A DNA stretch of 64,000 bases from a virus (lineage: Duplodnaviria; Caudoviricetes), in the IMG/VR virus record IMGVR_UViG_3300029288_000118, positions 1-64,000 of that record; one strand, given 5' to 3'. Below the pieces are notes generated by a model, which was not told the DNA's origin, ran no database searches, and saw only the letters and a program-made list of their open reading frames with translations. Shown piece by piece: positions 11,863 to 33,354 of the stretch (the first letter of the stretch is position 1; each line of letters begins with the position of its first letter). The position numbers and the translations under genes are program-made.

Positions 11863-12979
11863 AGATGTGATATTTCTGGGACCTGAATCATTTGAAAAAT
11901 CGATTGCTCATTTAGCTGGGGAGCAACATCACTTTATTGAATTGCAAAAGCTGGAGACTCTGCTTTATTCGGAATTCGATTTAAAGACAATGTATGAAGA
12001 GCTGATTAAATATGTGAACAAGGAATTCCCGGAAAAGACGGCTAAGAGTATCTCACTGAAGGAACTTCAAAAGATAGACGAGTTTGTAAAGAGCCTTACC
12101 CTGAACAAGATCACAAAAATTGAACAGTATATTGTTCGGGCTTTTGTGGTAGGCAACATAATTGAAGAACGACAGGGAAGTATAACGAGTATCATCAAAC
12201 CGATAGAAATGAATCTCAATCGATTGCCGGAAACAATTAAGAACGCTGTAAAGGAATACAGGTTGACACCGAGACAGATAGAGGCAGTGAATGTCAGCCT
12301 GAGCCACAGCGGTCAGCATTTAACATCCGCAACAAACGCAACTATCAATCGAGTGCAGAGTTTAACTACCGATAATATAATAAAAGGCGGTACGAGGAAA
12401 GAACTGGCTAATCTTCTGAGAGAGGAATTCACCAGCAAGGATAAAGAGATTAACCGGAATTGGAATCGTGTAGCAATCAATGAAATATCGTATGCGTATA
12501 ATAACGGATATCTGGCAACAATGAAACCCGGTCAATGGGTGATCGGAGTATCCATGCCGGATAGATGTGATTCTTGCGGAGCACTGATAGACGGTAAAGT
12601 ATATTATTTCTCAAATGTAACCAACCAGGATATGAAGCATGATGATCTGGATCCTCAGAGTAAGGAATATTCACGCAGGGCATGGTTATCAGAAAATACA
12701 GTATGGTTGTATAAAGACAATTATGGGCGGAGCGCAGCAAAGCGGAAGCGGACTGAAGAAGGGCTGAAAGATCGAGAGAGGCATGAAATGAATGTGCCAG
12801 CTTGCCCGTTGCATGTGCATTGCCGATGTGTTTGGTCCCGCTTTAATCCCGATTATCAATATGTCGAAAAAGGCGGGATAGTTAAAATGAAAGCGATGAA
12901 TGAAAAGGAGTGGAAGAAGTTTTATGATACGAAGATCCAACCAATGAAAGAAAAACTAAAAGAATATGGAATAATATAA
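11849..12979 (+). CDS. Head morphogenesis protein (MuF/SPP1 gp7-like)
   Basis: RNWNRVAINE...CDSC...CPLHVHCRCVW. Confidence 0.8.
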   Translation: MVEYKDVIFLGPESFEKSIAHLAGEQHHFIELQKLETLLYSEFDLKTMYEELIKYVNKEFPEKTAKSISLKELQKIDEFVKSLTLNKITKIEQYIVRAFVVGNIIEERQGSITSIIKPIEMNLNRLPETIKNAVKEYRLTPRQIEAVNVSLSHSGQHLTSATNATINRVQSLTTDNIIKGGTRKELANLLREEFTSKDKEINRNWNRVAINEISYAYNNGYLATMKPGQWVIGVSMPDRCDSCGALIDGKVYYFSNVTNQDMKHDDLDPQSKEYSRRAWLSENTVWLYKDNYGRSAAKRKRTEEGLKDRERHEMNVPACPLHVHCRCVWSRFNPDYQYVEKGGIVKMKAMNEKEWKKFYDTKIQPMKEKLKEYGII

Positions 12980-15548: not shown

Positions 15549-18500
15549 ATGAATACACTATATTTTGCCAAGTCCACGAGTGGAATGATTCACAGGGGAA
15601 GCGTTCTCACTCCCGAACCAACTGCCAGCAATCAAACACCAGTTATAGCCAAAGATTTTGAGACTTTCCAGCATGGAGAAGATTTATATCTTCTTGCGGA
15701 TAAGGAACCGCTGGAATTTATTGGATCTCTCCAAACGTCGACCGGCCAGGAATATTATTTCCAAAAGTCAAATATCACATATCGATATAACTCCAATTTT
15801 GAGCTGATAGAACTGAGTCCTAATTGGCTTAAAAAGGGAATAGCAACAAACAAAGGGATAGTAATTGAACTCGGTGACGATCTGGCGATCTGCAAAAACG
15901 GTGAAGGTGAAAAGCTATATTTTAAAAAATCATTACTCCCGATAGAAACCAACCTGGAGTTAGCACTGCAAGAGAATGAAGCAATAATCTACAGAGCAAG
16001 ACTCCATAAGTCTTTAACAGCAACGACACCGGAGATAAAGCAAGGAGCACCTAAATTCAGGGTATCGTTTGCCAGCCCGAAAGCCCAGATAGTACCTACG
16101 CAGGAACACACCGAAGGTGAAACGCGACAGTTTGGTCCTAATGATCTCCGGCAACTATCGAGAGGTAAAGCCGGACAATTAAGATGGCTCAGTATTGACG
16201 AAAAGGCGAAACTCCAGCAAGCCAAACAGAAAGCACAGGCAGAAGAAAGTAAGCAAAAAGAAAGGACAAAATATGCTGAAGGTATTAATACTGGTGGACG
16301 GATCGGAACACTTAGCAAGCTATTTAGAATCGGTAAAGAAATATTTGTCGGCGGAAGAAAAGCAGAAGTCATTGACTATGGAGACGATGTTATTGCGGTT
16401 AGAAAGGATGATGGAACAACTACCACTGTTAGAGCCAGTGAATATAATCCCGAACGACAGCAACCGGAAAAAGTTGTTCCAAAGAAGACAACAGAGACTC
16501 CAGAAGAACTTGCCAAAAAAGAACGGGAGACCAGAGAGGCAAAGACAAGACTTGAGACTGATATTCATTCACAGACACCGAGAAATAAATATTACGATGA
16601 GCAACAAGCGATTATCAAAGAACAAGAACAATTGCCGGAATATCAGACATTCCAGTCCGAGAACGAAAAAGAGGGATGGACGAAAGATATAGCGACACCA
16701 TTCAGATTTGTAAAGGACATTTCATTTGTATCCTCAATGGGAAACCTCCGCAGCGGGACTGCCGAGAAAGTGTGGAGACCGGAAAAGAAGGATTATGATT
16801 ATTACTTTGAGGGCGAAGGCTTTAATGTCACCTATCAGGGCAAAGATTATCGAATAGTAGGGATGGATCAAGACAAGATAGATATCAAGGATCAATTTGG
16901 AAACAAACAGACGATAAAAAACAACGAACTTGATCAATACAGGGGTCAGATAATCCTGGACGCTGAAGGCAATGCGAGAATCAAGAATATACAGGGTGAA
17001 GAATTTTCACTCGAACTTGTTGAGGGACTTAACCAGGAAGATTTATTTAAAGAAGGGATAGTCAAGATTATCAAGGATGAAGTTTGGAAATCGATCAAGA
17101 CAGGCGAAGGCGCAGTAGTTGACGATGTAAAGCTCGGTAGAATCCGGAGAGGGGTTACATTCTACAAACATGGTAACGAGGCGGGTATTATCGATGAAAA
17201 CAAACATGCGCACCAGGTAGCGAAGAACGACGTAAAGAGAGACCTACCCGAACCGGACGAAAAAATAAAAGCAATTCAAATTGAGGTAAAGAAGGAACAT
17301 CAGAAACTTGACAAACAAAATCTTGAACGACAAGACCTTGAAATTGTAAAAGCTCGAGTACTGCACGGGAATCAAAACGTGCCGTATGCACAAAAAGGCA
17401 AAGACCTTGAGCCGGAAAAATACAGAGACGTATTCGACAACTGGCTGAAAGATGGAGGAGAGGGAATAGATGAGCAGATAGCGGGAAGCTATACGAACCC
17501 TGAAGAATGGAAAGCCAACGTCTTATCACTGGCCGAAAGAATGAGAGCAGAGGATATAAAGAGAGCAAGCGAAGTTCAGGCAATGAACGATTTTGCGAAA
17601 TCCGGAGTAGTGATAGAAGCACCGAAACCCAAAGAGATTGAAGCGTATATCGAAACGGCAAAAGATATTTTGATGTCCAGGCGCAAAGACTTCTTACGGT
17701 CAAAGCAAGTAGAGAAAGACGAGGGTGCTAAATTCCAATGGGACGATCTTGCAGAGTTACCAGCAACGGAAAGCGGATCCCTTGTATCGGATAACGTAAA
17801 AGTGATAAGGGATAGCCGGAATGAATCTTACCAGGTGCAATATGCTTTTGTGCCTAAACAGAATATAGTGACATCGAACGACATTTCAGGCAAAACGAAT
17901 CCTGAGCATCCAAGTGAATTACAAGCGAGAGAACGCAGTCAGGATGAAGCCAGTACCTTACAGATGAAAAAAATAGCTGAGAATCCGAACGAAGAGCTGG
18001 TAGAGGATAATAAGGATGCAACGAGAGGTGCACCAGTAGGCTTTACGAAGGACGGGAAGGTTTATATCGTGCAGGGCAATGGCCGTACTGGAGCTGTATT
18101 GGGTATGGAAGGAGCTGGCAAGGAAAAATATTTTGGAATGATGTTGCAGAAAGCTCAAGAACTTGGAATTCCAACCGATAAGGTCACAGATGATATGATG
18201 CTGGTTAGAACTTTATCTCCGGTCCATACATACGAGGATGCCCGTAAGCTCGGTGCATTCGGTCAGAAGTCTTCAGCATTGCCCATGACAGAGGTAGAGG
18301 AAGCCCGCAGTTTTCAGAATGCGCAGCGGTTAAAATTTGGATTGAACCTGAATCTTACGGGAATCGGTCGACGGTCAATAAACGAAAAGAATGTAGGAAC
18401 ATTTATTCGTAACAATCCGCAGGTATATCAGAAGATACTCAAACTCAGTGGTTACGATCCGATAGCGGTTCAATACCGGCCAGCGGAACAAGCAAAGGTA

Positions 18501-21500
18501 GTCAATACTGCATTACTTGCTCAATTGGATAAAGATTTTATACGCACGGTGAGTAAAAAGGGAGAAGACACACACGAACTCGTGAAAGTGACCGCACCGA
18601 TCATAGCAGATAATCAAAAAGATATCGCAGAAGGCAGTGTGCCACCTAATGGTGATATCCAGAAATTTTTAAAGAATGCCATTGATCATTATGGTACGTT
18701 GAATAGCACGGTAAAGAACTCTTTGAAAGTAGACAAGAACGGCAATATACCATTCCTGGAGACCGGAGAGCAAGGGCGCAAGAATCCGGATAGCCTTATA
18801 TCTCGGATGAGACAAGAAACAATCGAATTCGGGGACAAGAAAAGCGGTAACATATTCCGGAATCCAGTGAACGTTATTGGAATGATTGCTTATCATCAGG
18901 CAATGACTCCCAGAGATCCAGAGAAAAAAGATCAAGCGCGGGAATTATTCGCGCTGAAGATGAAGCGATTCGCGGACGCGATGAAGACACTTAAAGAGAA
19001 GGCGCAACAAGGCGGGGATATATTTGCAGCCCAGTTGAGCGAAGAAGAGCAAACGCGACAACAGCAGGAAGATATCATTAAAATAGCAGAGAGAGTATTC
19101 CTGGAGAATAAGCCTTACCGGGAAGAAAACCCAGAGGAAATGACAGCAGAAGAAAAAGAAGCTGGCAAAGAGACGTATAATGCATTTAATGTCTACAAAC
19201 GGATGAGAGATGTATCACAGGAATTTCAGTTTGAATTAGAACACCACAAACTCAAAAAATCGTTGTTAGGATACTTCTTTAAGTCTATTATCCAAAAGCA
19301 ACACGGTGAATTAAAGCAGTTCAAAACGGATCAGATGAATCTATTTGGAGCACCGGAGGAAAAGCATAATATAGGGGACATAAAGATAGAGAACGGAATT
19401 AAATATACTCTGCTTGAGACTACGATAGGAAAGCCCAGATGGCATACTGAAGCCGAGATAGAGGCGATGAAGAAACAGAAACAAATTCAACCGAAGCCAG
19501 AAGAACATAAACCCGAAACAAAGCCAGTCTCTAAAATTCCATTCACCAAACTGAAACCTGAAGTAAAACAGGAACCGCAGCAATCCAAAAGAGCAAAAGG
19601 GGAATTCTATAAAGTAGATGATGATATTGTAGGTGAAATTCATAAGATGGAAGGATTTAACGATACTCACGGTATTAATGCAAACGTATTCGCAGAGAGA
19701 GTTGAAGTAATCAAAGGATTCTCAAAAGAGAAAAGATATTTCCCGCAGATAAAAGACTATGAGAATGAAGAGACAATCACAATAGGCGATACAAGGAAAG
19801 GCTATAAATCTCTTTCAGAAGCAAAAAAGGCATTGAAAGAAGAACTTGCAACCTATCTTAAAAACAATGCTGAGAATATTAAAAAGCATTATGGAAGCGA
19901 GTATGTTGAAATCAAGTCAGAAGATAAAGAGGAAAAACCAACGTCAAAACCGATTCGCACTGAAGCATATCGGAAGAGACAACAAGATATTGACAATATG
20001 AAAAAAGGGGTTGAAATAACGAAAGATCATATTGAATCACTTACCGATGCCGTAGAAAATCCAGCATGGGAAGCATCGAGGAAAGAATATCCTGAGAGGG
20101 CAGAAGATTTTATTAAGCAGTTAAAGGAAGCGAAAAAAACACTTGCAAAAGAGGAAAAGGAATTAGCAGAGATAGAGAAGGTTCATGCGAGAGAAACCGA
20201 AATAGAAAACAGGCAGGAACCACTATTTGCAGAAAAGCAAAAAGCGGAAGCGCAGGCAAAGAATAAAAAATTATCAGGCGAGTTATTATCTGAATTCAAA
20301 GACGGTAAATATTCAGGGGTAGAGTTTAAAGCACTTGGGATTGCTAAAGATATTAAAGAATATAAATGCTCAATGATTATCGGAAAGAAGCTGGACGCGA
20401 AAAATAATAGCGAAAAACTAAAACAGCTTGCAGCACTCTCGCAGATATACCGGGATCCAAGATTTGAGACATTCAGAATAATATATACAAAGGGAGATAA
20501 GATAGTTGGACACACGGGGATTACTTTAAGACTTCCAGGTTCGACCTTGATAGTCCCGCCAAATATAAAAGGCAAAGATGTCTATAAACACTATCAAATA
20601 GAGATGGAGAATCTGAAAGCCGATGGAATGTACTTTGTGCATAATCATCCTTCTGGTCATGTCACACCGTCTATACATGATATTACGGCAACAAAAGAAA
20701 TAGCAAAGAACTTAGGAGATAAATTCAAAGGGCATGTAGTAATAGATTCCAATATTTACTCAACGATTGATAAGGACGGATATGTTGACGAGGAATTAGC
20801 TATACCCACCGAAGAAGAAAAAGAAGATGTGCTGACAACGCCAAGCATTCCGCACGATATTTTAGGGGAAAAGATTTTTGATCCCGCTGGGATAGCGACA
20901 ATAATGAGAAAACACAAATTGGACATAGAAGATGGAAAAAGCAAAATAGTAATAGCATTGGATGCGTATAATAAGATTAGAGGAATAATAGTGGTAGATA
21001 AATATCTACTGCTTGATAAAGAGAAAGCGAAAGACATATTAAGGAGAATATCAGTCCAGTCTGGATGTCAATCTCTGTTTATCGCGGGTATTGAAGATCA
21101 GTATAACAAAGAAGAAGATTTTACTTCCAGTAATGCCAATATCAGAGATTTATATAAAGAGAATTTTATACTCGATGTTGTTTCAAAAAGAGGGAATTCA
21201 TTAATGATGGGGACGGGAATTATGAGGAATCCCGACAGTGATCCATTCGGAGTTAAAGAGGAATCAAGGCAACTTGTGAAGTCAATCTTCCGATTCTTTA
21301 AGTCTCAAATGGATATGTTTGGAGCACCGAAGCAACCGACACAGCCAAAACCTGAAGGTGGAATATCCTGGAAAGCGTTAGGACAAGAAAAACCAGGACA
21401 TAAATACATACGCAGGGAAAGAGGCAAGACTGGAGAATGGGTATACTACTACAAGGACGCACAAGGCAGGGAATTCAAGGGAGACGCGAAGGGCAAAGAG

Positions 21501-22964
21501 CTTTCGAAACATCATGACTGGAATAAAGGTGATGTAGTTATACACGACGGCAGAAAGTATGAGCTTGGTAAATTCGGCGATACAATGGCAACCATTGTTA
21601 GTCAAAAAGGAGAAGTCAAAGCTGTGAGGATAGCCGAACTCACGCACGAAGCCGAACACCAAAAGAAATTAGTGACCGAACACGAAACCAAATGGGATAG
21701 ATTAGTATCAGCATTGGAAGCGGATGTAGCACAATTTGACAAAACTGGAAAATCTATAAACTTCCCAGAAGACAAGAAATTTGAATTGCAACGAAAGTTA
21801 AAATATGCAAAAGAAGAAAGAGATAAGAGAAAAGTTAACAAACAGAATTCCCCCAACGTCGCTTCCGACGACGTTATCCCCAGCGAACCTGGTTTGGTCC
21901 CTGCAACCAAGCCAGGTTCTTCCTCTAAGAAAGTAGATCAGACCGAAACGCCAGAATTCAAGAAGTGGTTTGGAGATAGTAAAGTAGTTGATAAAGAGGG
22001 AAAGCCGAAAGTAGTATATCATGCCTCTACTGAGAACTTTAAGGAATTTGATACAAGTGCAGAGGGAGCACATTTCGGGACTGAAGAACAAGCGTTAAAT
22101 CTTAAAAAAGCCGGAAAGAAAAAACCAAAGGCATTCTATCTTTCTATAAATAATCCCTTACGCATGGATGATGTTGGAATATGGAATGATTTTAATGGAA
22201 TCCATGCCAGACTCGCGAACGAAGATAAAATAACAGCAAAAGAAGCAGATGAAATATGGGATGAATGGCAAAAAACCGATGAGAAAGGATGGAGTAAACT
22301 TAAAGAAGTTTTGAAAAGAAAAGGTTATGATGGATTCGTTTATGCAAATGAGCAAGAAGGTGAAGGCGATTCTTATGTAGCCTTCTCTCCAGAACAAATT
22401 AAATCAATTGAGAATAAAGGAACATTTGATCCCAACACTGGAGACATAACGAAATCCGTTTCAACCTTTTTTAAGCAACTTACCAAAGCCCGTAAAGAGA
22501 CCGATACCGAACCTACTGAAGCACAGAAAGAAGCCGGAAATTATGCAAAAGGCAAATTAGAACTTTATGGGTTAACTATCAGTATAGAAAATCCGAAGGG
22601 AAGTATTCGTAGAGGAAAAGATAAAAATGGCACTCCCTGGAAATGCAAACTTAGAAATGATTACGGATATATACTCGGTACGGTAGGAAAAGACAAGGAT
22701 CATCTCGATGTATTTTTAGGTAAAGATATTAATGCTAAGAATGTCTATATCGTGAATCAACAAGACCCAGAGACAAAGGCATTCGATGAACACAAAATAA
22801 TTCTATTAATGCCAAACAAAAGAAAAGCCATCAAGGCATATAAATCAAATTATGCAGACGATGCAAGCAAAAGGATAGATAGTGTTACTGAAATGACCAT
22901 TGAAGAATTTAAAAAATGGATTGAGAACGGAAATCATAAAGAGAAAGCAATAGTCCAGTGTTAA
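15549..22964 (+). CDS. Giant polyvalent protein: ddrB-like ParB, JAB/RadC-like, ART-PolyVal and inorganic pyrophosphatase-like domains
   Basis: ParB: HPSELQARERS...GAPV...QGNGRT (~17830-18300); JAB: E...HNHPSGHVTPSIHD (~20420-20790); ART: TPEFKKWFGDSKVVD...VYH...GYDG...QIKS (~21940-22450); InPase: PTEAQKEAGNY...IENPKGS...YGYI...DHLDVF...FDEHK (~22490-22960). Confidence 0.85.
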   Translation: MNTLYFAKSTSGMIHRGSVLTPEPTASNQTPVIAKDFETFQHGEDLYLLADKEPLEFIGSLQTSTGQEYYFQKSNITYRYNSNFELIELSPNWLKKGIATNKGIVIELGDDLAICKNGEGEKLYFKKSLLPIETNLELALQENEAIIYRARLHKSLTATTPEIKQGAPKFRVSFASPKAQIVPTQEHTEGETRQFGPNDLRQLSRGKAGQLRWLSIDEKAKLQQAKQKAQAEESKQKERTKYAEGINTGGRIGTLSKLFRIGKEIFVGGRKAEVIDYGDDVIAVRKDDGTTTTVRASEYNPERQQPEKVVPKKTTETPEELAKKERETREAKTRLETDIHSQTPRNKYYDEQQAIIKEQEQLPEYQTFQSENEKEGWTKDIATPFRFVKDISFVSSMGNLRSGTAEKVWRPEKKDYDYYFEGEGFNVTYQGKDYRIVGMDQDKIDIKDQFGNKQTIKNNELDQYRGQIILDAEGNARIKNIQGEEFSLELVEGLNQEDLFKEGIVKIIKDEVWKSIKTGEGAVVDDVKLGRIRRGVTFYKHGNEAGIIDENKHAHQVAKNDVKRDLPEPDEKIKAIQIEVKKEHQKLDKQNLERQDLEIVKARVLHGNQNVPYAQKGKDLEPEKYRDVFDNWLKDGGEGIDEQIAGSYTNPEEWKANVLSLAERMRAEDIKRASEVQAMNDFAKSGVVIEAPKPKEIEAYIETAKDILMSRRKDFLRSKQVEKDEGAKFQWDDLAELPATESGSLVSDNVKVIRDSRNESYQVQYAFVPKQNIVTSNDISGKTNPEHPSELQARERSQDEASTLQMKKIAENPNEELVEDNKDATRGAPVGFTKDGKVYIVQGNGRTGAVLGMEGAGKEKYFGMMLQKAQELGIPTDKVTDDMMLVRTLSPVHTYEDARKLGAFGQKSSALPMTEVEEARSFQNAQRLKFGLNLNLTGIGRRSINEKNVGTFIRNNPQVYQKILKLSGYDPIAVQYRPAEQAKVVNTALLAQLDKDFIRTVSKKGEDTHELVKVTAPIIADNQKDIAEGSVPPNGDIQKFLKNAIDHYGTLNSTVKNSLKVDKNGNIPFLETGEQGRKNPDSLISRMRQETIEFGDKKSGNIFRNPVNVIGMIAYHQAMTPRDPEKKDQARELFALKMKRFADAMKTLKEKAQQGGDIFAAQLSEEEQTRQQQEDIIKIAERVFLENKPYREENPEEMTAEEKEAGKETYNAFNVYKRMRDVSQEFQFELEHHKLKKSLLGYFFKSIIQKQHGELKQFKTDQMNLFGAPEEKHNIGDIKIENGIKYTLLETTIGKPRWHTEAEIEAMKKQKQIQPKPEEHKPETKPVSKIPFTKLKPEVKQEPQQSKRAKGEFYKVDDDIVGEIHKMEGFNDTHGINANVFAERVEVIKGFSKEKRYFPQIKDYENEETITIGDTRKGYKSLSEAKKALKEELATYLKNNAENIKKHYGSEYVEIKSEDKEEKPTSKPIRTEAYRKRQQDIDNMKKGVEITKDHIESLTDAVENPAWEASRKEYPERAEDFIKQLKEAKKTLAKEEKELAEIEKVHARETEIENRQEPLFAEKQKAEAQAKNKKLSGELLSEFKDGKYSGVEFKALGIAKDIKEYKCSMIIGKKLDAKNNSEKLKQLAALSQIYRDPRFETFRIIYTKGDKIVGHTGITLRLPGSTLIVPPNIKGKDVYKHYQIEMENLKADGMYFVHNHPSGHVTPSIHDITATKEIAKNLGDKFKGHVVIDSNIYSTIDKDGYVDEELAIPTEEEKEDVLTTPSIPHDILGEKIFDPAGIATIMRKHKLDIEDGKSKIVIALDAYNKIRGIIVVDKYLLLDKEKAKDILRRISVQSGCQSLFIAGIEDQYNKEEDFTSSNANIRDLYKENFILDVVSKRGNSLMMGTGIMRNPDSDPFGVKEESRQLVKSIFRFFKSQMDMFGAPKQPTQPKPEGGISWKALGQEKPGHKYIRRERGKTGEWVYYYKDAQGREFKGDAKGKELSKHHDWNKGDVVIHDGRKYELGKFGDTMATIVSQKGEVKAVRIAELTHEAEHQKKLVTEHETKWDRLVSALEADVAQFDKTGKSINFPEDKKFELQRKLKYAKEERDKRKVNKQNSPNVASDDVIPSEPGLVPATKPGSSSKKVDQTETPEFKKWFGDSKVVDKEGKPKVVYHASTENFKEFDTSAEGAHFGTEEQALNLKKAGKKKPKAFYLSINNPLRMDDVGIWNDFNGIHARLANEDKITAKEADEIWDEWQKTDEKGWSKLKEVLKRKGYDGFVYANEQEGEGDSYVAFSPEQIKSIENKGTFDPNTGDITKSVSTFFKQLTKARKETDTEPTEAQKEAGNYAKGKLELYGLTISIENPKGSIRRGKDKNGTPWKCKLRNDYGYILGTVGKDKDHLDVFLGKDINAKNVYIVNQQDPETKAFDEHKIILLMPNKRKAIKAYKSNYADDASKRIDSVTEMTIEEFKKWIENGNHKEKAIVQC

Positions 22965-23497
22965 TTTTTATATCCATTCTTAATAAGATATTGACGTATA
23001 GTTGGAGGAGAGACATTACATCTTCTCGCAATACGATTCATAGGGATTTGTTTCTCGAACAAATCTATACACAATTTGACATTCCATTTAGGATTCCCCC
23101 ATCTTGGATTATTTGTCCCCAATCCTTTTCTTTTAAATACCCTTTGAATAGATCCACCAGTAACATTAAAAATCTTGCCTATTTTCTCAAAAGAATAACC
23201 CATCTTTCTAAGTTTTACAGCTTTCTCAAGAGACCATTTTCTTCTCTCACCATCGTGTATATAAGACATATGATAAGATTGGTTTGTTATTTCAAGATTA
23301 TCAATAGAATTATTCAATCCATTTTCATCTTTGTGGTGAACTATTTCTGTTCTCAAAAGAGGACGGCCAAGATATTTTTCCATAATCAATCGATGCTCAA
23401 AACGTTGTCTTCGTATGCCATCAATATAAACGCTAACCAATCGATAGGATGTTTTATGATTAGGAAATTTTCTAATATGATTAATTTTTCGAGGCAT
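22961..23497 (-). CDS. HNH homing endonuclease with C-terminal HTH repeats
   Basis: EHRLIMEKYLGRPL...EIVHHKDENGLNNSIDNLEI; two HTH-like segments. Confidence 0.85.
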   Translation of the reverse strand: MPRKINHIRKFPNHKTSYRLVSVYIDGIRRQRFEHRLIMEKYLGRPLLRTEIVHHKDENGLNNSIDNLEITNQSYHMSYIHDGERRKWSLEKAVKLRKMGYSFEKIGKIFNVTGGSIQRVFKRKGLGTNNPRWGNPKWNVKLCIDLFEKQIPMNRIARRCNVSPPTIRQYLIKNGYKN

Positions 23498-23562
23498 AAT
23501 ATTCTCTCTTTGTTTGATGAATCCAATGTAATGATAAGTTTTTTAAACTGCAAAAGACCACA

Positions 23563-23868
23563 ATGAAACCAATTAGTTCATATCCGAAGCAAGAACATCA
23601 GCCAGGATTCGTAGTGTGGGAGCTGGATCATCAGGACGGTCAGCGTAGACTCGAATTCTTTTGTGAAGCCTGTGGCTATAATCATTTTTTTGATGAACGC
23701 TGGATGTGGAATGGTGATTATGTGAAACCGACGTTTTATCCAAGCCTATTGGTCAACGGTCATACTCCGAGCATGAAATGTCATAGTTTTGTGACCGACG
23801 GCGAAATTCATTACCTGGCTGATTGTTTTCACGGTTTTAAAAATCAGCGTATACCGCTAAAACCATAA
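23563..23868 (+). CDS. DUF6527 family protein
   Basis: FFCEACG..H...WNGD..KPTFYPSLL...CHSFVTDGEI..LADC.H. Confidence 0.75.
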   Translation: MKPISSYPKQEHQPGFVVWELDHQDGQRRLEFFCEACGYNHFFDERWMWNGDYVKPTFYPSLLVNGHTPSMKCHSFVTDGEIHYLADCFHGFKNQRIPLKP

Positions 23869-23873
23869 TACAA

Positions 23874-24059
23874 ATGAAGAAAGTAAACAACATACCTAAG
23901 CAAGCAACGGAGACAAAAACATGTGTATGTAAACAACCAGAATTTGCATTCAAAACACCGTCGATGAAAACAGACGGAACTTATTTCCAATATTGTAAGA
24001 AGTGTCAGAAATTTAGAGATGTGCCAAAACCCAAGCAAGGTAGAGAATTAATATTTTAG
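23874..24059 (+). CDS. Small zinc-ribbon protein
   Basis: CVC...YCKKCQK. Confidence 0.5.
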   Translation: MKKVNNIPKQATETKTCVCKQPEFAFKTPSMKTDGTYFQYCKKCQKFRDVPKPKQGRELIF

Positions 24060-24070
24060 AGGATATCACC

Positions 24071-27000
24071 ATGAGTAATATTCCATTTAATTATTTAAAA
24101 GTATCACAAACACAGTATGAGATGCCAGAGCCAAATAATATATGGAGATTTTTAAAAAGCCAATTAGGCTTATTTGCTGGATCTCCGCAAAAGCAAGCTC
24201 CGATGCCGGCCAAACCTAAAAATATTCCATTTGCATCTCAAAAGCCGAAAGAAAGTCCTAATATCGGAGACGTGAAAGTTGAAGGTGATCATAAATATAT
24301 ATTTTTGGAAACGACTATTGGCAAACCGAGATGGCATACTCATGAAGAACTTCTCCAGATGGTAAAAGAGGGCAAACAGGTACCCGAGATAGCAAAAAAG
24401 AAAATGCCAATGCTTCAAACGCGGGAAGAAAGCAAGAAACCCGTTTCGATCACGGGCGAAGAAATCAAAGTAGGAGATTATATCTATTATGGGAGAGATC
24501 CACGAGAACAAGGATTCAGCGAAAAGCAAATAAAACCGCATGAACTAAAAAAGGTAACGGGGTTTAAAGATATCGGTGGAGGGATACATCCTACCTGGAA
24601 GCCGGATAAAAAAGTTAATAAATATGATAAAGGCTATAATTTTTCCGCAAAAGAATACAGCATCATTAAGGACGCAGAAAAATTTATAAATCCAGATAAA
24701 TCGAAAAAAGAAGACGAGACTAAACAAGCGATGGAATTAGGCAAGAAAGCATTTCAAGCTGGAGGCATACGCACTCCCAGCCTTGACAAAGAATTAATGA
24801 AGATGCTTGAAGGTGCGCAGGTAGGTGAAAAAACTCATGTGCTGGAAGCCTGGAATAAGGGTTGGGATCAGGAAAATCTCAAAAAGCCAGAAGAAGAACC
24901 GAAGCAAACTGAAATCCCATCTGAGAAACTAAGCAAACCGAAATTATCCGCTGAAGAACAATATGTCCAAGATCAAATTAAAAAGGGAGACCTGGAAACG
25001 GCTATTAAACGACAACAGGGAATGAGAAAAACTGAATATACTGAAGACCAGCAAGCTAAAATAAATGATCTCAATAAGTTGATGCAACGTAGAGCGCAAC
25101 TCCAAAGAGAGATAGATGCACCGTTGACAGCAGTTAAAGACGTAGAAAAAGGTGGTCAGAAATTTGAGGTTGACACCAAAAAATATGCAAAGAGGGAAAT
25201 GAAGTATCTTGACAAGCGTATAGGTGCATTAAAGCAGGAACTTGGAAAACTGGGAGAAAACTTATTTGAGACTCAGGAAGACATATTCTCACAGGCAACT
25301 CCAGAGCCGAAAGATCAATTATCAGAGAATATCAATAAGCAAGTAGAAGAACAAAAGAAAAAGGAAGCACCGTCTTTAAAAACCCTAATGGCTACACAAT
25401 CGGAAGTATTAAAACTTGCAGCAATACCAGAAGAAGATATACCGATGTACGCGTTAAACTCTATGGCCGATGGAGCAAAATTACGATCGTACTCTACTGA
25501 AGTTATCAAGGGAGAAATCACGATTCAACAGGCAGCGGACAAGGTGAAGAATGACTATACAAAGATGAAAGAGGGGGAGAAGCCAACAAATGTTGCTCCG
25601 TTACCGTCGACGGAGAAAAAAGAAATATGGCAAATGACGAAAAACGAATATGCAAACAGTAAAGAAAACTTAGACGAGTACACTGACGCAATAAAAAATC
25701 CACCATTAGCAGGCGAAGGCACTATGGAAAGAAGTGCTGGAATTTTAGGAGCAAGTAAAGAAGAGGCAATTAAGAGCGGTGAACGTATGCACAAGATGGA
25801 AGTAAAAAATGCACTTAAAGAAGGGAAAGAAGTTCCATCTGAAGTTCTTAAAGATTATCCAGAACTTGAAAAAGAATATAAAGATACTCTCCCTCTCCGG
25901 CCAGAGGATAAGGATTCCAAAGAAGGGGATATCAAGACTATCAATGGAATTCAGTATCAATTGAAGCGCGGTGAAAGCGGTGAACTCCGGTGGCATAGGG
26001 TAACAGGAAAAGAGGAAAAAGAAGCATGGCAGACAGGAAGGGACGAATATGCTATTTCCAAAAATTCTCCAAAACCTGAAATAGAAATAGGAGACATTTC
26101 TTTCCATCAGTTAAGTAAGATGTCAGAAAGAGCTAAAGCAGAAACGACGAAAAAGCGAGTAGCCGAACGAAAAATAGCAAAAGAAAAATACGATAATGCA
26201 ACTAAAGAGTGGGAGGACAAGATATGGGATGCTTATCGGCAAGGAAAATTTTCGGCAAACGATGTTTATGATACAGACGCATTTTATGTATTAAATGAAA
26301 GATTAACAAAAGAAGGTATAGACATTGACTCTCCATTCAAGATAAGCCAGAAAAACGAAGATGAAAGATCAAAATATTTGTCAGGGATTGACAATACTGC
26401 AAAAGGTAAATTTACAGAAAAGCAATCCGAACCCGTTGTAATCCCGCGTCAAGAAGCCATCGAAGAGCATGAGCATTTAATGGAAGTACTCGAGAATGGA
26501 ACTGAAGAAGAACGTAAAGCAGAGGCCGAAAAGCAAGCAAAAGAACTCAAAGAGTATAAGGGCGAATCGCTGAAGGAAAAAGTAGAAGAACGATTGAGTG
26601 AGAAACAAGCTGGGAAAAAATTCAAAGACGTAGGTACTCGAGTAGGCGGAAGCCGGAAAGAGATTGCCGCAATTCGAGTATTGACCGCAGGTGATCTGGA
26701 TAAACTTGATAATGCTACAGCTTACAGAGTAGTAACGAAAGAAAGAATATTACCAGATATTAATCCTCAAGCAGAGAAGGATAATGGAGTAGAGAGTGGA
26801 GCTGCATACATGAAGAAGAAACTCCGTGAATCTGTAAATGCCAAACCGCCTAATACCCCAGAAGACCGAAAGAAATTTGTTGAACTGACTCCAAAGATAT
26901 TTGAGAAAATCGATGCAGCAAAAACAATTGAAGATATTCGTACGATCGGCAACGAAGACTTTGAGACATTTATGGACTGGGGAAGCCGTAAGCGTGTAAC

Positions 27001-28627
27001 TTTTTATAAGCATGAAGATTATAAAAGCGATGTAAGCCGATTACTTGGCAAAGAGTTTTTAAACCTTATTGGTCGCAATAGTGATTCAGCAAAAAAGCAC
27101 TGGAGCGATGCGGTGTTAATGAATTCTTTTAACGAAGAGACGGCGAAAGAACAGTATAAAAAGTATGCTGAAGGAAGAAAAAATGTTGTTGAGATGAATA
27201 AAAAACGGATGGATGAATATACAGCGGAACAGTGGGAGCGTTATTTTAAGACGGATCCGATGACAACGATGTCATTTACGAGGAAGCAACTTACAAGTGA
27301 AAAACAAAACAATCCTGAGAAGTACCAACAAGCTATCGAAGATTATAAGGCAAGAGAATATAAATCGAATGAACGGCGAAACGAACCAATTACTTATGAA
27401 GAGTGGTTGGATAAGAGACCACAATATAAACCGAGAGAAGCTGACTGGAGCTGGGCGGAGGCTAAAGATAAAAAAGTTATTGAAAGACGTAAAGCGGAAT
27501 TAAAGATACATGATAATCCGCCTTTGGCGTTTATCAAGCGCACAAATGGAAGACAAGTGCTTAATTCAGATATCACGGTAGAAGCGATAAAAGATAAATA
27601 TGGATTTAAGAGCGTTCAATTTGGCCACTATGTTAAAGATGTTGAAGCTCAGGAGCATGTGAGACACTTTATTGAGAGCATGAATGATCTGGAAGATGCA
27701 CTGGGAATTGATATAAAAAAAATGAATCAACTTTCAGGACTGAGTATAGCGTTTGGTGCACGGGGTTCCGCAGGAGCACTTGCTCATTATGAACCGATGG
27801 CCAAGATAATAAATATCACTAAGACCAGAGGTGATGGAACGATATGCCATGAACTATTCCACAACATTGATCATCTATTAGGCGGGATGGAAGAAGGCAC
27901 AAGAAAAGAGAAAATTTATCTCTCTCAACAAGGAATTGGGGGTTACGAACGAACAAAAGAGAACGACATACTAAACAAGCGCAAACTCCGAGTAGCAATG
28001 AACGATGTAATGAATGCTATTAAAAAGGGAACAAACGAAAAGAAACTTAATTTTGAACCAGGCGGGAATAAATATACATACGGGAGTATAAGAAATAAGT
28101 TTGAAACCGAAGGATATGAGGCAACGAGAGAATACCTAATGAAATATGCGAAGGATCCAGATGAGCTTGGAAGAGCTGAAGACTATTTTAAATATCTTTC
28201 GACATTGGCAAATAAACCAATTGAAGTAATAATACCTACCGGACGAACAAAATATTATGATTCAGCAATGCAGTTTAACAGTAAATACTGGCAAAGGGAT
28301 CAAGAACTATTCGCGAGAGCAGCGGAGGCGTACGTGCAAGATAAATTAATAGGGAGCAGGATGTATAATAACTACCTGGTAGCTGGTAACAATATTCAAC
28401 AACCGGACAAAAAATGGGAATCTGGATCACTGGAAATCACTTATCCGCAGGGAGAGGAAAGAGTGATTATCAATGAAGCGTTTGACAAGCTCCTGGAAAC
28501 AGCGAAAAGCGAACTGAATATTGGATTAGAAAAGAAAAGGGAAGGTAAAAGAGTATCGAGCGAAGTACAGATGCAAAAGAGTTTATATAATCCAAACATT
28601 TTTAAATCACTCTTCAGGAGAATATAA
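24071..28627 (+). CDS. Large polyvalent protein: LPD5-like, zincin metallopeptidase and LPD1-like domains
   Basis: FKDVGTRVGGSRKE; YGFKSVQFG...LSIAFGARG...AHYEP...HELFH; YW...ELFARAAEAYV...YPQGEER. Confidence 0.8.
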   Translation: MSNIPFNYLKVSQTQYEMPEPNNIWRFLKSQLGLFAGSPQKQAPMPAKPKNIPFASQKPKESPNIGDVKVEGDHKYIFLETTIGKPRWHTHEELLQMVKEGKQVPEIAKKKMPMLQTREESKKPVSITGEEIKVGDYIYYGRDPREQGFSEKQIKPHELKKVTGFKDIGGGIHPTWKPDKKVNKYDKGYNFSAKEYSIIKDAEKFINPDKSKKEDETKQAMELGKKAFQAGGIRTPSLDKELMKMLEGAQVGEKTHVLEAWNKGWDQENLKKPEEEPKQTEIPSEKLSKPKLSAEEQYVQDQIKKGDLETAIKRQQGMRKTEYTEDQQAKINDLNKLMQRRAQLQREIDAPLTAVKDVEKGGQKFEVDTKKYAKREMKYLDKRIGALKQELGKLGENLFETQEDIFSQATPEPKDQLSENINKQVEEQKKKEAPSLKTLMATQSEVLKLAAIPEEDIPMYALNSMADGAKLRSYSTEVIKGEITIQQAADKVKNDYTKMKEGEKPTNVAPLPSTEKKEIWQMTKNEYANSKENLDEYTDAIKNPPLAGEGTMERSAGILGASKEEAIKSGERMHKMEVKNALKEGKEVPSEVLKDYPELEKEYKDTLPLRPEDKDSKEGDIKTINGIQYQLKRGESGELRWHRVTGKEEKEAWQTGRDEYAISKNSPKPEIEIGDISFHQLSKMSERAKAETTKKRVAERKIAKEKYDNATKEWEDKIWDAYRQGKFSANDVYDTDAFYVLNERLTKEGIDIDSPFKISQKNEDERSKYLSGIDNTAKGKFTEKQSEPVVIPRQEAIEEHEHLMEVLENGTEEERKAEAEKQAKELKEYKGESLKEKVEERLSEKQAGKKFKDVGTRVGGSRKEIAAIRVLTAGDLDKLDNATAYRVVTKERILPDINPQAEKDNGVESGAAYMKKKLRESVNAKPPNTPEDRKKFVELTPKIFEKIDAAKTIEDIRTIGNEDFETFMDWGSRKRVTFYKHEDYKSDVSRLLGKEFLNLIGRNSDSAKKHWSDAVLMNSFNEETAKEQYKKYAEGRKNVVEMNKKRMDEYTAEQWERYFKTDPMTTMSFTRKQLTSEKQNNPEKYQQAIEDYKAREYKSNERRNEPITYEEWLDKRPQYKPREADWSWAEAKDKKVIERRKAELKIHDNPPLAFIKRTNGRQVLNSDITVEAIKDKYGFKSVQFGHYVKDVEAQEHVRHFIESMNDLEDALGIDIKKMNQLSGLSIAFGARGSAGALAHYEPMAKIINITKTRGDGTICHELFHNIDHLLGGMEEGTRKEKIYLSQQGIGGYERTKENDILNKRKLRVAMNDVMNAIKKGTNEKKLNFEPGGNKYTYGSIRNKFETEGYEATREYLMKYAKDPDELGRAEDYFKYLSTLANKPIEVIIPTGRTKYYDSAMQFNSKYWQRDQELFARAAEAYVQDKLIGSRMYNNYLVAGNNIQQPDKKWESGSLEITYPQGEERVIINEAFDKLLETAKSELNIGLEKKREGKRVSSEVQMQKSLYNPNIFKSLFRRI

Positions 28628-29907: not shown

Positions 29908-30237
29908 ATGCCAACAGTCAATCCTGATACAATAGAATCTATAGAAATTACTGAGGATATAGTAAAAGAATATATTCCGGATCCCCTGAAACAGTTCTGG
30001 TTTTTTAGGGCATTACAAAAAAGCCTACATTTTGATGAAAACGGCAGAGTGCATGGGTTTAATCAGCATATAATACATTATAGGCGTAAATACGTCATTG
30101 ATATGTATAATTCCGGGAAAAATTATGAGGAAATAGCGAAGTCTTTAAAGGTCTCTGTTTCCCTCATAAGGCATGATATTGACTGGTACACCGAGAATAA
30201 GCGGAACAAAAAAATTCCGCTATCTACCACAAGGTGA
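29908..30237 (+). CDS. HTH DNA-binding protein, candidate late regulator
   Basis: VIDMYNSGKNYEEIAKSLKVSVSLIRHDI. Confidence 0.65.
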   Translation: MPTVNPDTIESIEITEDIVKEYIPDPLKQFWFFRALQKSLHFDENGRVHGFNQHIIHYRRKYVIDMYNSGKNYEEIAKSLKVSVSLIRHDIDWYTENKRNKKIPLSTTR

Positions 30238-30293: not shown

Positions 30294-31802
30294 ATGGACG
30301 AACAAAATAAATACTTCAGAATTTTTGGCTTTTTAGACAAACTTGAAAAATCCATTCCCGCTTCATCCTCAATCGATAAAGAAGGAGTTATAATCGAAGG
30401 TAGATTCATGAACGCCGTCCACGACATCTCTGGAGAGAGGCCGATTATACCGGAGATGATCTGGGATATTCTGAAGAAATCAGGGAATATCAAATACGAA
30501 CATGATCCGTTATCAGTCAAGAAAATGTCGGACGGGACATTGATGGCAGTAGCTCAGGCAAATCCAGGAAATATTATCGGAGTTCCACTTAATATAAAAA
30601 CAAGTGCTGATGGCAAACAAGCATTTTTTAAAGCAACTCTATTCCCGGAAAACGATCTCGTAAAATCATTGATAAAAAAAGCGAAAGAATTTGACGAACA
30701 TAATAAACGCTATCCGAACAATCAAAGACATTTTCAATTATCGGTTGAGGGCAAATATTACAAGAGAGACAAACTGACAAAAACTTACGCAGGTATTGCT
30801 GAGAATATAGTTATATCCCCGCAAGCTCAGGATGAAAGCACATATTTTCATTTTGTAAACGCGGAAAATCTTGCAATGGCAAAATCTCTTGCAGCGGGCA
30901 CGGAAACAAATATAACAAACATGAAAAATGGTGATTCATTACGTCAAGAAAGTTTAGAAGGCAATAATAAATCAAATTCAAGGAGAAAAAAAATGAACAA
31001 GCTTGGAAAAAATCGTGACGAAGTATTCTCGCACTTCCGAAAATCATGCGGGACACAAAAAGAAGCACAGGAAAAAACCGACGAATATATGAGAGAGCTG
31101 GAAACGGAACGAAATAATTCCGGCACTTCATTTGCGAAGAGTCTGAATGATGGAATTGATAAAATTAAAAAATCCATCACTGATTTTGCCGGGATTGAAA
31201 CCATAATTGCGGCCAAACAGGCGGATGTTGTAAAGATAGACACGGAGATGAAGAAATCTATCAACACACTCAGAGAGGATCCGGAGAAATTCAGCGGTGA
31301 ACAATTTATGCAACAACAGACCGCTGCAACAGTTGCGTTCGGCACAAGCCTAAACGAAGTTCAATCTCAGTTAGTAAAATCGTTGGCGACACTGGCTGAA
31401 GGTCTTGCAGATGTTCTTCCATTGCTGAAAGATATTCATTCAATGACATCCGATGCCGTTGAACAAGCGGCAGACGCGAATGAGGCAGTAAGGTATATTG
31501 CGCGTGGGCTGAAAAAATCACATCAAGGCTTTACCCGTTCAATCGATGCACTTGAACCGATGAACGGCGGAGACAAGCCCAATGCAGAAAAGATTTTGAA
31601 ATCGATCAACACAAAAGCCGTTGAGCGTTACCTGGTAGATAAATTTGTTGCCAACCAGGCATCACCAGCGATTGCCCAGCAGTACGATGAGGCATATAAC
31701 CAGCTCAACCGTATGGGTCGTGATGCGTTCGGAGCGATGAACAAATCCATTGTCTCGGAAATTGTACAGGTATTTGAAGCGCAATTTACCGATGTTCAGT
31801 AG
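30294..31802 (+). CDS. Prohead protease fused to scaffold
   Basis: DISGE...IKYEH...IIG...QLSVEG; helical C-terminal half; directly upstream of capsid gene. Confidence 0.8.
   Translation: MDEQNKYFRIFGFLDKLEKSIPASSSIDKEGVIIEGRFMNAVHDISGERPIIPEMIWDILKKSGNIKYEHDPLSVKKMSDGTLMAVAQANPGNIIGVPLNIKTSADGKQAFFKATLFPENDLVKSLIKKAKEFDEHNKRYPNNQRHFQLSVEGKYYKRDKLTKTYAGIAENIVISPQAQDESTYFHFVNAENLAMAKSLAAGTETNITNMKNGDSLRQESLEGNNKSNSRRKKMNKLGKNRDEVFSHFRKSCGTQKEAQEKTDEYMRELETERNNSGTSFAKSLNDGIDKIKKSITDFAGIETIIAAKQADVVKIDTEMKKSINTLREDPEKFSGEQFMQQQTAATVAFGTSLNEVQSQLVKSLATLAEGLADVLPLLKDIHSMTSDAVEQAADANEAVRYIARGLKKSHQGFTRSIDALEPMNGGDKPNAEKILKSINTKAVERYLVDKFVANQASPAIAQQYDEAYNQLNRMGRDAFGAMNKSIVSEIVQVFEAQFTDVQ
30993..31802 (+). 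CDS. Nested in-frame scaffold protein
   Basis: AGGAG at 30981-30985 followed by in-frame ATG at 30993. Confidence 0.55.
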   Translation: MNKLGKNRDEVFSHFRKSCGTQKEAQEKTDEYMRELETERNNSGTSFAKSLNDGIDKIKKSITDFAGIETIIAAKQADVVKIDTEMKKSINTLREDPEKFSGEQFMQQQTAATVAFGTSLNEVQSQLVKSLATLAEGLADVLPLLKDIHSMTSDAVEQAADANEAVRYIARGLKKSHQGFTRSIDALEPMNGGDKPNAEKILKSINTKAVERYLVDKFVANQASPAIAQQYDEAYNQLNRMGRDAFGAMNKSIVSEIVQVFEAQFTDVQ

Positions 31803-31866: not shown

Positions 31867-33354
31867 ATGAATAATGAGTTCAGTTATCCCGATGCGTTGG
31901 ATCTGGGCGTATCTTCAGGCGGAGGATTCTCTGGAATTCCTGCCGATAATTACGGTTCCCTTTTCCGAAGCAAAAGTCCTATGAGAGCGATACAAGAAGC
32001 TCTCGAAAAATCGCTTACCGCAGGTTATGAAACGAATCTACCGTCAATGTCCGGCGGTGGTGCGATGCGTATTGAATCGCTTGAGCCGAATCTCACGAAA
32101 CTGATTTATGACGACAAATCGACAGCACTCTTTAACGATCTGCTTGCTACAAAGCAGAAAGCGAAATCCACGATTGAACAATATACGACATGGGATTATG
32201 TAGGTGAAGCTGCTACATTTGAAGAAGGCGGAGCACCGTCTTATGAAGATGATGGCTATACCAGACATGTTATGCCCGTGAAGTATGTCGGTGCAATCGG
32301 GAGAGTTACAAATCCGATGCGGGAAGTGGAAGCGATTGTTGAGCCAGAGGCTCAGGAAACAAAAGCGAAGATGCTGGCAATCAAACGTAAAGCAAATCAG
32401 GTATGTTACTTCGGTGATGCGACAGCGGTACCGACAGAATTTACCGGATTATTTCCCGCAGTGAGAGACGGCGCGTATGCGACAACGAACATCATTGATC
32501 TGCAAGGTAAACGATTAACCCTTGAAAACGTAAACGCAGGTATTGCAGCACTTGAGGATCAGAAAGGATATTGCACGAGTCCACGAATGTATATTTCTCC
32601 GCAGGCGCGGATGAATTACAAGAATGAACTCTTGAAAAACAAGTACTACATCGTAAACGGCGTTCAATCGACGAGAGAAGATATTGAAAATGCATTACAA
32701 GGGCTGGGTAAAAACCAGATCGCTTATGACGGCGGTGAAATTCCATATCGGAAAGACATCTTCTTGAATCCCCGTAAATATCCACGTAGAAATACAGCGG
32801 GTAATGCCTTTATTGCAACCGGATCCACTCCGCCAGCAACACCGACGATCACGAGCGCAACGCCAACAGTAGATGCGACATCCTCGATTCCGGCCGGAGA
32901 TTACAATTATGCAGTTGTAGCAGTTAACAAATACGGTCAAAAATCAGCACCAGCAGAATCCGGGAAAGTAGTAGTAGCAGACGGTGAGAGCGTTGTGTTC
33001 GTGTTGGCAGATGGTGGAAGCACATCTGGTCTTGAAGCAACCGCATGGGAAATTTACCGTCGAGCTGATGGTGGTGGAGCAACGGATTATCGGTATTTAT
33101 TTACCGTAGCAGTTGCCAGCACACCGATAACGGATAAAAATGCATACATGCCGGATACTTCGATCATTCCGTTAGTTGATTTTGATCTGGACGAAGTGTT
33201 GATTTACAAACAATTGCTTGATGCTGCCAAATTCCCGCTTGCGACAACAGTGGATGCGATTCAATGGCTTCAGAGGTTGTATGGAGTGCTGATCATAAAG
33301 AATACACGGCGTATCGTGATATTCATTAACGCAGGTTCAACCGCAGCCTCTTAA
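31867..33354 (+). CDS. Major capsid protein (SPO1/A511-like)
   Basis: KSLTAGY...AMRIESLE...FGD...EFTGL...IIDLQG...LYGVLII. Confidence 0.9.
   Translation: MNNEFSYPDALDLGVSSGGGFSGIPADNYGSLFRSKSPMRAIQEALEKSLTAGYETNLPSMSGGGAMRIESLEPNLTKLIYDDKSTALFNDLLATKQKAKSTIEQYTTWDYVGEAATFEEGGAPSYEDDGYTRHVMPVKYVGAIGRVTNPMREVEAIVEPEAQETKAKMLAIKRKANQVCYFGDATAVPTEFTGLFPAVRDGAYATTNIIDLQGKRLTLENVNAGIAALEDQKGYCTSPRMYISPQARMNYKNELLKNKYYIVNGVQSTREDIENALQGLGKNQIAYDGGEIPYRKDIFLNPRKYPRRNTAGNAFIATGSTPPATPTITSATPTVDATSSIPAGDYNYAVVAVNKYGQKSAPAESGKVVVADGESVVFVLADGGSTSGLEATAWEIYRRADGGGATDYRYLFTVAVASTPITDKNAYMPDTSIIPLVDFDLDEVLIYKQLLDAAKFPLATTVDAIQWLQRLYGVLIIKNTRRIVIFINAGSTAAS

Follow-up and report, generated by a model that had tools for sequence, protein, structure and literature searches.

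Lys-Ser cassettes at the domain junctions of giant polyvalent proteins as candidate prohead protease sites in an uncultured tailed phage

The first 64 kb of the 93,986-bp virus record IMGVR_UViG_3300029288_000118 (here called the window, meaning the whole stretch of 64,000 nucleotides [nt] that was analyzed) covers the head and tail module of an uncultured 94-kb myovirus-like phage; the CheckV completeness of the record is 100%. Two giant proteins are encoded there, and judged by their predicted domains, they belong to the polyvalent proteins as defined by Iyer et al. 2017 (PMC5512222). Short aromatic cassettes bounded by Lys-Ser dipeptides separate the predicted enzymatic domains of the larger one, giant protein 1, and their motif is identical to that found in the scaffold and the major capsid protein. 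We consider it probable that the prohead protease would cut the giants at these K/S cassettes (the slash marks the predicted cut) into separate enzymes inside the capsid.

Lys-Ser cassettes in giant protein 1

A cassette is defined here as a K/S site followed by a 5- to 9-residue aromatic spacer that ends in Φ-Φ-K and by a second /S, i.e., K/S-x(5-9)-ΦΦK/S. The central features, in window coordinates, are as follows (aa, amino acids; h-x-K-S, hydrophobic residue, any residue, Lys, Ser).

15549..22964, + strand: giant protein 1 (2471 aa), a predicted polyvalent protein (Pfam matches; homologues P0004-P0008)
15549..16013, + strand: N-terminal leader region of giant protein 1, with four h-x-K/S sites at K8, K73, K127, and K154 (FAKS, FQKS, FKKS, and LHKS)
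19254..19286, + strand: junction cassette 1, LKK/SLLGYFFK/S, at the border between ParB and JAB (KKSLLGYFFKS, residues 1236-1246)
21279..21305, + strand: junction cassette 2, LVK/SIFRFFK/S followed by QMDMFGAP, at the border between JAB and ART (KSIFRFFKS, residues 1911-1919)
22452..22478, + strand: junction cassette 3, ITK/SVSTFFKQ, at the border between ART and InPase (KSVSTFFKQ, residues 2302-2310)
30294..31802, + strand: predicted prohead protease (residues ~1-197) fused to a helical scaffold (~198-502); 502 aa, fold match to T4 gp21
31867..33354, + strand: major capsid protein (phrog_752; E value, 1.2e-58), with the predicted maturation site LEK/SLTAGYETN, K48/S49, nt 32008-32013

Four Pfam domains, all above the cut-offs, were identified in giant protein 1: ddrB-ParB (residues 757-888), RadC/JAB (1689-1739), ART-PolyVal (2148-2290), and InPase (2324-2459). 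Because these positions flank the three cassettes, the cassettes lie between domains; cassette 3, for example, is located 12 residues past the end of ART and 22 residues ahead of the start of InPase. An initial annotation of the window had listed the doubled motifs with their coordinates and named the domains on either side, and all of these assignments were borne out. The protein starts with MNTLYFAK/S, a context that is the same as that of the scaffold and capsid sites. A possible additional cut site, K514, is K/S in close relatives only.

Motif counts were compared with expectations corrected for Lys, Ser, and hydrophobic content and with 20,000 shuffles, for h-x-K-S and for a strict form, h-x-K-S-[ILVM]. 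The protease-scaffold open reading frame (ORF), ORF 30294, holds 13 K-S dipeptides, and 12 of them are h-x-K-S against 1.0 expected, a number that none of the 20,000 shuffles reached (strict form, 9 versus 0.22); about ten had been noted initially. In giant protein 1, 11 h-x-K-S sites were observed versus 4.0 expected (reached in 44 of the 20,000 shuffles), together with 7 strict sites (0.79 expected) and 6 F-x-K-S sites (0.54 expected). These two proteins are the most enriched of the 116 ORFs of the genome, and for neither the scaffold nor giant protein 1 is chance a tenable explanation. The MuF-like protein has 2 strict sites versus 0.18 expected, and the remaining ORFs of the 93,986-bp genome are at expectation (8 strict sites observed, 9.9 expected). 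The portal protein is at chance (h-x-K-S, 1 versus 0.8; strict form, 0 versus 0.18), and the MKKS that had been noted there is thus not distinguishable from background. Enrichment beyond composition, which the initial annotation had put up as a test of its proposal, is real for ORF 30294 and giant protein 1; the evidence from giant protein 2, the portal, and some of the single sites is anecdotal.

A protease-scaffold fusion with a Lys-Ser hallmark

ORF 30294 directly precedes the major capsid gene and has the scaffold attached. Its structural model has a beta-rich N-terminal domain (predicted local distance difference test score [pLDDT], ~65 to 80) followed by long helices over the C-terminal 300 residues. 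The best match of residues 3 to 177 was T4 gp21 (5jbl_A; VIA Z, 9.5; root mean square deviation, 4.1; 135 residues aligned); the top three Foldseek matches of this domain were all 5jbl chains, and herpesvirus assemblins came next (VIA Z, 4.3 to 4.8). We were not able to identify any match to the Peptidase_S77, Peptidase_S78, or ClpP models anywhere in the 93,986-bp genome (S77 and S78 at E values up to 1), and ORF 30294 was therefore classed by fold and gene position, outside both Pfam families. Given the gp21-like N-terminal domain, the helical C-terminal part, and the lack of any other detectable prohead protease family, ORF 30294 is predicted to be a protease-scaffold fusion. Residues H70 and S150, which are invariant in an alignment of ten homologues (A1; identity down to 32%) and are kept in the relative L004, are candidates for the catalytic His and Ser.

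Nine K-S dipeptides are invariant in A1 while their flanks drift: K19, K197 (K197/S, nt 30882-30887), K282, K293, K321, K362, K408, K436, and K484. When 1.8 billion cluster representatives were searched with a profile, 225 members of the ORF 30294 family were retrieved. All 400 h-x-XY patterns were then scanned, with no prior choice, in 106 full-length representatives of at most 50% mutual identity. In 98 of the 106, h-x-K-S was the most enriched pattern, typically with ~10 sites observed versus 1 expected, and in 6 of the remaining 8, K-G or K-A ranked first. In T4, the scaffold protein gp22 is broken down by gp21 into many pieces at the motif L/I-x-E (PMC9026906). By this analogy, the simplest reading of specificity is cleavage after Lys when a small residue follows and P3 is hydrophobic; the ORF 30294 protease most likely cuts at hydrophobic-x-K/S(A,G), with I, L, or V usually next. 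Found throughout the family, the h-x-K-[S/A/G] hallmark of the scaffold makes for a simple testable prediction of specificity for at least 225 protein clusters.

Covariation at P1' gave weak support: the scaffold of L016 has mostly K/G sites, and its large proteins mix K/S, K/G, and K/A doublets (e.g., FLK/S..IRK/G). An 11-residue weight matrix built from homologous scaffold sites overfitted the flanks and served as a loose ranking only.

The capsid protein site and a copy of the capsid arm

The initial annotation had also pointed to Lys-Ser sites in the capsid protein (K48/S49), in the MuF-like protein (FEK/S, K17), and in ORF 41071 (a doublet), and all three are present as described. It named as precedent the capsid proteins of A511, which reportedly mature by cleavage at Lys-Ser. 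In relatives, the capsid site reads NK/SMVAGYETN (L002) or RK/ALEAGYGT (L001), with P1' alternating between Ser and Ala. The capsid site follows the rule seen in the scaffold, and K/S marks the predicted border of the capsid N-terminal arm.

The protease-scaffold contains a paralogous copy of the mature capsid N-terminal arm: K197/SLAAGTETNITNMKNGDSLRQESLEG (30882-30965) is similar to capsid K48/SLTAGYETNLPSMSGGGAMRIESLEP (32008-32090). This copy is retained by all homologues in A1, and phrog_1028 matches both proteins. It may be a mimic of the capsid arm or the trace of an ancient fusion between protease and capsid protein. In L006, the ORF after the protease (L006:5315-9451) encodes 1378 aa; it has the capsid N terminus ILK/SNNPLGELRK/ALAAG, and its long C-terminal extension is similar to the C terminus of the SNF2 protein of L001. 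Either a fusion of capsid protein and cargo or an artifact of assembly may explain this ORF.

Conservation of the cassettes in relatives

Conservation at the domain junctions of homologues, which had been named as a check on the proposal, was observed: the cassettes are kept at borders in proteins P0005 to P0008 and in the relatives L001 and L004. P0005 to P0008 are 74% to 78% identical to giant protein 1 over the collinear first 1300 residues, and the cassettes are kept in all of them. P0006 has no JAB match, and P0007 and P0008 have neither JAB nor ART matches and carry other modules instead; nevertheless, the cassettes persist, and in P0007 and P0008 the equivalent of cassette 2 is retained ahead of these other modules. 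Each of P0005 to P0008 also has a K/S site 21 to 26 residues upstream of InPase. K1237-S is invariant in seven sequences with identity down to 42%. K73-S is likewise invariant in L001 and L005 (42% identity), where a K-S is also retained at K127 or immediately beside it (one alignment column off); just 12% of all dipeptides are invariant in the alignment with these two relatives.

In L001, where the modules are encoded by separate genes, LKK/SIRQLIRFFK/S plus nine residues forms the end of the ParB protein, the next gene, for a zeta-toxin-like kinase, starts with MFRK/S..MFGP, and the SNF2 protein carries EFK/SFFK/S ahead of its final domain. The cassette is thus a portable element of module ends that is independent of any single fusion.

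The deepest comparison is with L004, the protease and capsid protein of which are 30% and 23% identical, respectively, to those of the window and the scaffold of which contains 13 h-x-K-S sites (1.1 expected). One of its polyvalent proteins comprises topoisomerase I, ParB_N, SAM lyase, and LPD1 domains, and the other comprises InPase, four ART stretches, DarA_C, and SNF2. The cassettes K/SVRFIFK/S, K/SIRLLFK/S, K/SFELFK/S, and K/SIRYIIK/S lie between these Pfam domains, and the leaders read MKFIFK/S and M..VRFIFK/S. As in cassette 3, DITK/S follows an ART domain in a distant protein of L004 (P0017). Among ~110 other polyvalent proteins retrieved, the cassette was near shuffle level (9 observed, 2 of them in P0017; shuffle mean, 3.2; maximum, 7), which indicates that it tracks this protease family or head-module lineage and is not a general polyvalent feature. 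By sequence comparison, namely, the family-wide scaffold hallmark and the capsid border, K/S is very probably the prohead protease site, and the same motif is conserved at the module junctions and termini of the giants. Recombination boxes were ruled out as an explanation of the cassettes, which are not repeats at the DNA level.

Further short elements adjoin the cassettes. The motif Q.(D/N/G)[LM]FG[AS]P stands directly after the second cut site in cassette 2 and after the N-proximal site of giant protein 2 and 16 residues after cassette 1 (19332-19355, 21306-21329, and 24161-24181). By sequence, Q.D[LM]FG resembles the beta-clamp motif QL[SD]LF, and Q.D[LMI]F[GAS] is common in distant polyvalent proteins without a K-S cassette, often as FTLTGS..AD..GQ.DLFG. 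A module, KY.L.ETTIGKPRWHT, occurs after the first cassette of giant protein 1 (19400-19448) and after the N-terminal site of giant protein 2 (24292-24340), the DNA being 73% identical over 49 nt; in L005, a similar ..IGDKM..PKWH follows the cassette. Each cassette of L004 is followed by a tag of ~20 residues, HVK.H.R.(3-4)GK..V..Y (L004:4418-18475 and L004:2297-3328). There are at least 8 copies of this tag in the two polyvalent proteins and one in a 343-aa protein, and it may serve to tag cargo, separately from the cut site.

Proposed processing of the giants

In the proposed pathway, giant proteins 1 and 2 would be co-assembled into the prohead core. The protease would cleave its own scaffold at about ten sites, which would leave small peptides, its protease domain would be freed at K197/S, and the capsid protein would be trimmed at K48/S49. 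During maturation, giant protein 1 would be cut into ParB-like, JAB, ART, and pyrophosphatase (InPase) pieces, and the 7- to 8-residue aromatic spacers between its doublet sites would be released. The four pieces counted in the initial annotation are not what the sites predict. Instead, a leader with several cuts (residues 1-154; K8, K73, K127, and K154) and, with a possible cut at K514, residues 155-514 would be followed by residues 515-1237 (ParB), 1246-1911 (JAB), 1919-2302 (ART), and 2303-2471 (InPase). Giant protein 2 would be trimmed at both ends, losing 29 N-terminal and 6 to 15 C-terminal residues. The cut pieces would later leave the capsid with the DNA.

The aromatic spacer may, by analogy with the T4 capsid targeting sequence, tag the proteins for loading; a packaging-tag role and the ejection of the effectors are what we infer. 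A broader proposition, which we regard as plausible while stopping somewhat short of calling it probable, is that the tailed phages of this family use true capsid-cargo polyproteins, in which swappable or splittable modules are joined by a portable cassette made of a cut site and a spacer loading tag and one late gene delivers several enzymes; exchanging modules or giving them genes of their own would not abolish delivery.

Giant protein 2 and alternative explanations

The features of giant protein 2 that bear on these proposals are as follows.

24071..28627, + strand: giant protein 2 (1518 aa), with Pfam LPD1 at residues 1403-1481 and a long N-terminal part without family matches
24155..24160, + strand: N-proximal site WRFLK/S (K29), followed by QLGLFAG (HFFK/SQMGLFGG in the L003 homologue)
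27848..27862, + strand: HELFH (HEXXH) metal-binding motif, residues 1260-1264, in a candidate rival processing enzyme
28577..28609, + strand: C-terminal cassette MQK/SLYNPNIFK/S, 6 residues ahead of the stop

Several observations weigh against cleavage of the giants by the prohead protease. Giant protein 2 is not enriched overall (h-x-K-S, 3 observed versus 2.7 expected; strict form, 2 versus 0.51) and has terminal sites only. Cassette 3 ends in K-Q instead of K-S. In L001 and L005, both K154 and K514 are replaced by K-R, and K8 is absent. In an AlphaFold model of residues 1881 to 2471 of giant protein 1 (seven sequences), the mean pLDDT is 47.5 and the cassettes fall in low-confidence helices, so their exposure is not readable from the model. 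Cutting at K/S, in the scaffold and capsid protein as well as in the giants, is something we infer from the amino acid sequences. In SPN3US, the giant phage that has been studied best, the identified cuts all remove N-terminal propeptides, apart from the C-terminal self-cleavage of the protease, and none yields several functional pieces (PMC10052503). Two further points, the repeated unit around the cassettes and a metallopeptidase motif in giant protein 2, belong to the alternatives below. In L003 and L005, the C-terminal cassette of giant protein 2 keeps the first site and has lost the second.

One alternative is that the cassettes stay uncleaved and act as docking or linker elements; as short amphipathic aromatic helices, they would connect modules or attach to the scaffold, the capsid interior, or the portal, with K-S kept through duplication of a linker unit and the giants left intact like N4 vRNAP. 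We regard this as unlikely, although it has observations in its favor. Each cassette is part of a larger repeated unit in the giants, in which it is followed by Q.D[LM]FG and then by the small module G..KY..ETTIGKPRWH, and its conservation could therefore partly reflect duplication of the unit. The cassettes are predicted to be helical in a weak model, and N4 vRNAP, ArdC, and TraC1 are transferred unprocessed (Iyer et al., PMC5512222). However, this explanation does not tell why a linker would use the dipeptide context that marks an unrelated scaffold and the border of the capsid N-terminal arm, a context that is also kept in L004 despite a different following unit (HVK.H.R..GK). Nor does it account for cassettes 6 to 9 residues from the C terminus in two proteins or for genes that start with MFRK/S or MKFIFK/S.

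Alternatively, the giants might be processed by a zincin metallopeptidase embedded in giant protein 2, in the head or after injection, with the prohead protease acting on the scaffold and capsid protein only. The intact HELFH motif, overlooked in the initial annotation, lies in a region matching NCBIfam CLCA_X (E value, 3.7e-27; residues 1164-1272; under the whole-protein cut-off), which points to a zincin-type peptidase, and the HEXXH is kept, beside the cassettes, in the L003, L005, and L004 homologues. Embedded metallopeptidases of this kind are the published candidates for processing of polyvalent proteins in general (Iyer et al. 2017, PMC5512222). The Pfam MPTase model gave no match in giant protein 2, and a search for sequence relatives of this protein in the PDB found none. 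We nevertheless consider processing by the zincin improbable: with one and the same motif at the junctions and in the scaffold and capsid protein, this explanation needs two unrelated proteases with one specificity, and the fetched region around L001 has cassettes and, within that region, no LPD1 or zincin gene. An explanation of the pattern by Lys-rich composition together with selective reading is hardly credible: giant protein 2 and the portal are indeed at chance, as are several of the single sites cited, and N-proximal h-x-K-S occurs in 18 of the 116 ORFs (an excess of such sites in head genes was accordingly unconvincing), but the composition-corrected and shuffle tests contradict it, h-x-K-S came first family-wide in the unbiased pattern scan, and K-S positions are invariant across relatives.

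Comparison with known systems

Polyvalent proteins as well as gp21-like processing of head cargo (T4, phiKZ, and SPN3US) are known; their combination is not described in the literature searched. The giants share with the polyvalent proteins of Iyer et al. (PMC5512222) the domain repertoire (ddrB-ParB, RadC/JAB, ART-PolyVal, InPase, LPD1, and a candidate zincin), the location of the genes next to virion genes, and the prediction that they are packaged and injected. Such proteins have at least two effector-type domains per polypeptide; giant protein 1 has four, and giant protein 2 has LPD1. The authors liken polyvalent proteins to viral polyproteins and assign the release of domains to embedded metallopeptidases, and prohead proteases appear in a reference only. 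Their paper describes neither a junction motif nor a link to the prohead protease, whereas here the doublet cassette matches the scaffold and capsid sites of the head protease. We found no link of polyvalent proteins to prohead protease processing in the literature searched, the coverage of which is incomplete and no proof of absence. A polyvalent protein has been detected by mass spectrometry in phi24B virions.

The closest parallel in T4 is the packaged ART enzyme Alt, from which gp21 strips short N- and C-terminal propeptides (PMC9026906). The protease fold is the same, the scaffold likewise has many copies of a three-residue motif, and the propeptides of the ART cargo end in that motif (PMC9026906); the termini of the giants correspondingly carry a site of the scaffold and capsid type (MNTLYFAK/S in giant protein 1; RFLK/S and the C-terminal cassette in giant protein 2). 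The T4 motif is, however, L/I-x-E instead of h-x-K/S, and each T4 internal protein, like Alt, is a single unit from which propeptides are removed and not a multienzyme chain with internal sites. The ejection proteins of phiKZ and SPN3US, which are processed by gp175 and gp245, resemble the giants in that a gp21-like protease and a short motif common to the capsid protein, the protease, and many head-internal proteins are involved (PMC10052503). The long SPN3US propeptides with several cut sites (PMC10052503) resemble residues 1 to 154 of giant protein 1. Unlike these N-terminal propeptide cuts, the sites of giant protein 1 lie between enzymatic modules.

The P1 proteins DarB, DdrB, and DarA are also large, head-packaged, defense-countering proteins, including a ddrB-type ParB domain, and DdrB and DarA undergo proteolytic processing. 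Their processing is not tied to a junction cassette, and their architecture and head module are different.

In HK97, gp5 is cut during maturation at Lys103/Ser104. A likeness to HK97-type Peptidase_S78 proteases is seen in a distant relative of the window protease, P0233, which gives a weak S78 match. In contrast, the window protease itself is fused to a long scaffold and has no S78 or S77 match at E values up to 1, whereas HK97 has no separate scaffold or packaged cargo.

If the head protease cuts the junctions, polyvalent proteins of this type would be polyproteins in the strict sense, processed by the maturation protease rather than by the embedded metallopeptidase proposed in 2017, and the limits of each injected effector could be read from the sequence. 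The cassette could then be used to search for capsid cargo that has escaped annotation and possibly as a portable tag for loading foreign proteins into capsids. Such processing would be easily overlooked, because a cut after Lys is indistinguishable from a tryptic end in standard proteomics.

Gene order and additional candidate sites

Almost all genes of the window are on the + strand, in the order portal (6483), MuF-like (11849), giant protein 1, giant protein 2, a small helix-turn-helix gene, ORF 30294, capsid (31867), and tail genes. The giants are thus encoded on one strand between the portal and MuF-like genes and the protease and capsid genes, and this synteny is retained in relatives. 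A blastn search of phage DNA with the head module as the query and a scan of viral contigs with the capsid protein alone as the query gave no matches. The remaining features are as follows.

6483..8201, + strand: portal protein (PHROG portal families; E value, 1.7e-12), which opens the head module; single MKK/S at K403
11849..12979, + strand: MuF-like minor head protein (weak Pfam Phage_Mu_F and phrog_595 matches)
41287..41322, + strand: cassette-like doublet IKK/SIPMFSFMRK/S in ORF 41071 (strict motif, 2 observed versus 0.16 expected)

The two sites of the MuF-like protein are FEK/S at K17 (nt 11897-11902) and FVK/S at K81 (nt 12089-12094), and the corresponding protein of L004 has FEK/SIV at K20. 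The small helix-turn-helix gene just upstream of the protease (29908-30237) encodes two strict sites, ALQK/SLH and IAK/SLK (0.05 expected), and is third in the genome-wide enrichment ranking.

Parts of a ubiquitin-like system adjoin the cargo genes (window positions 12992-13717, 14313-15257, and 23563-23868): a Multi_ubiq-domain protein (E value, 6.7e-5) and a family-9 glycosyltransferase are encoded between the MuF-like protein and giant protein 1, and a BubE-family gene follows giant protein 1 in relatives, in addition to the JAB domain. In L001, an IS605 OrfB/Cas12f-like TnpB gene (L001:18586-19725, - strand) is inserted into the phage structural module. ORF 41071 (41071-41787; 238 aa, without a family match) sits between a tail-spike-like gene and tail genes and may encode another processed virion protein.

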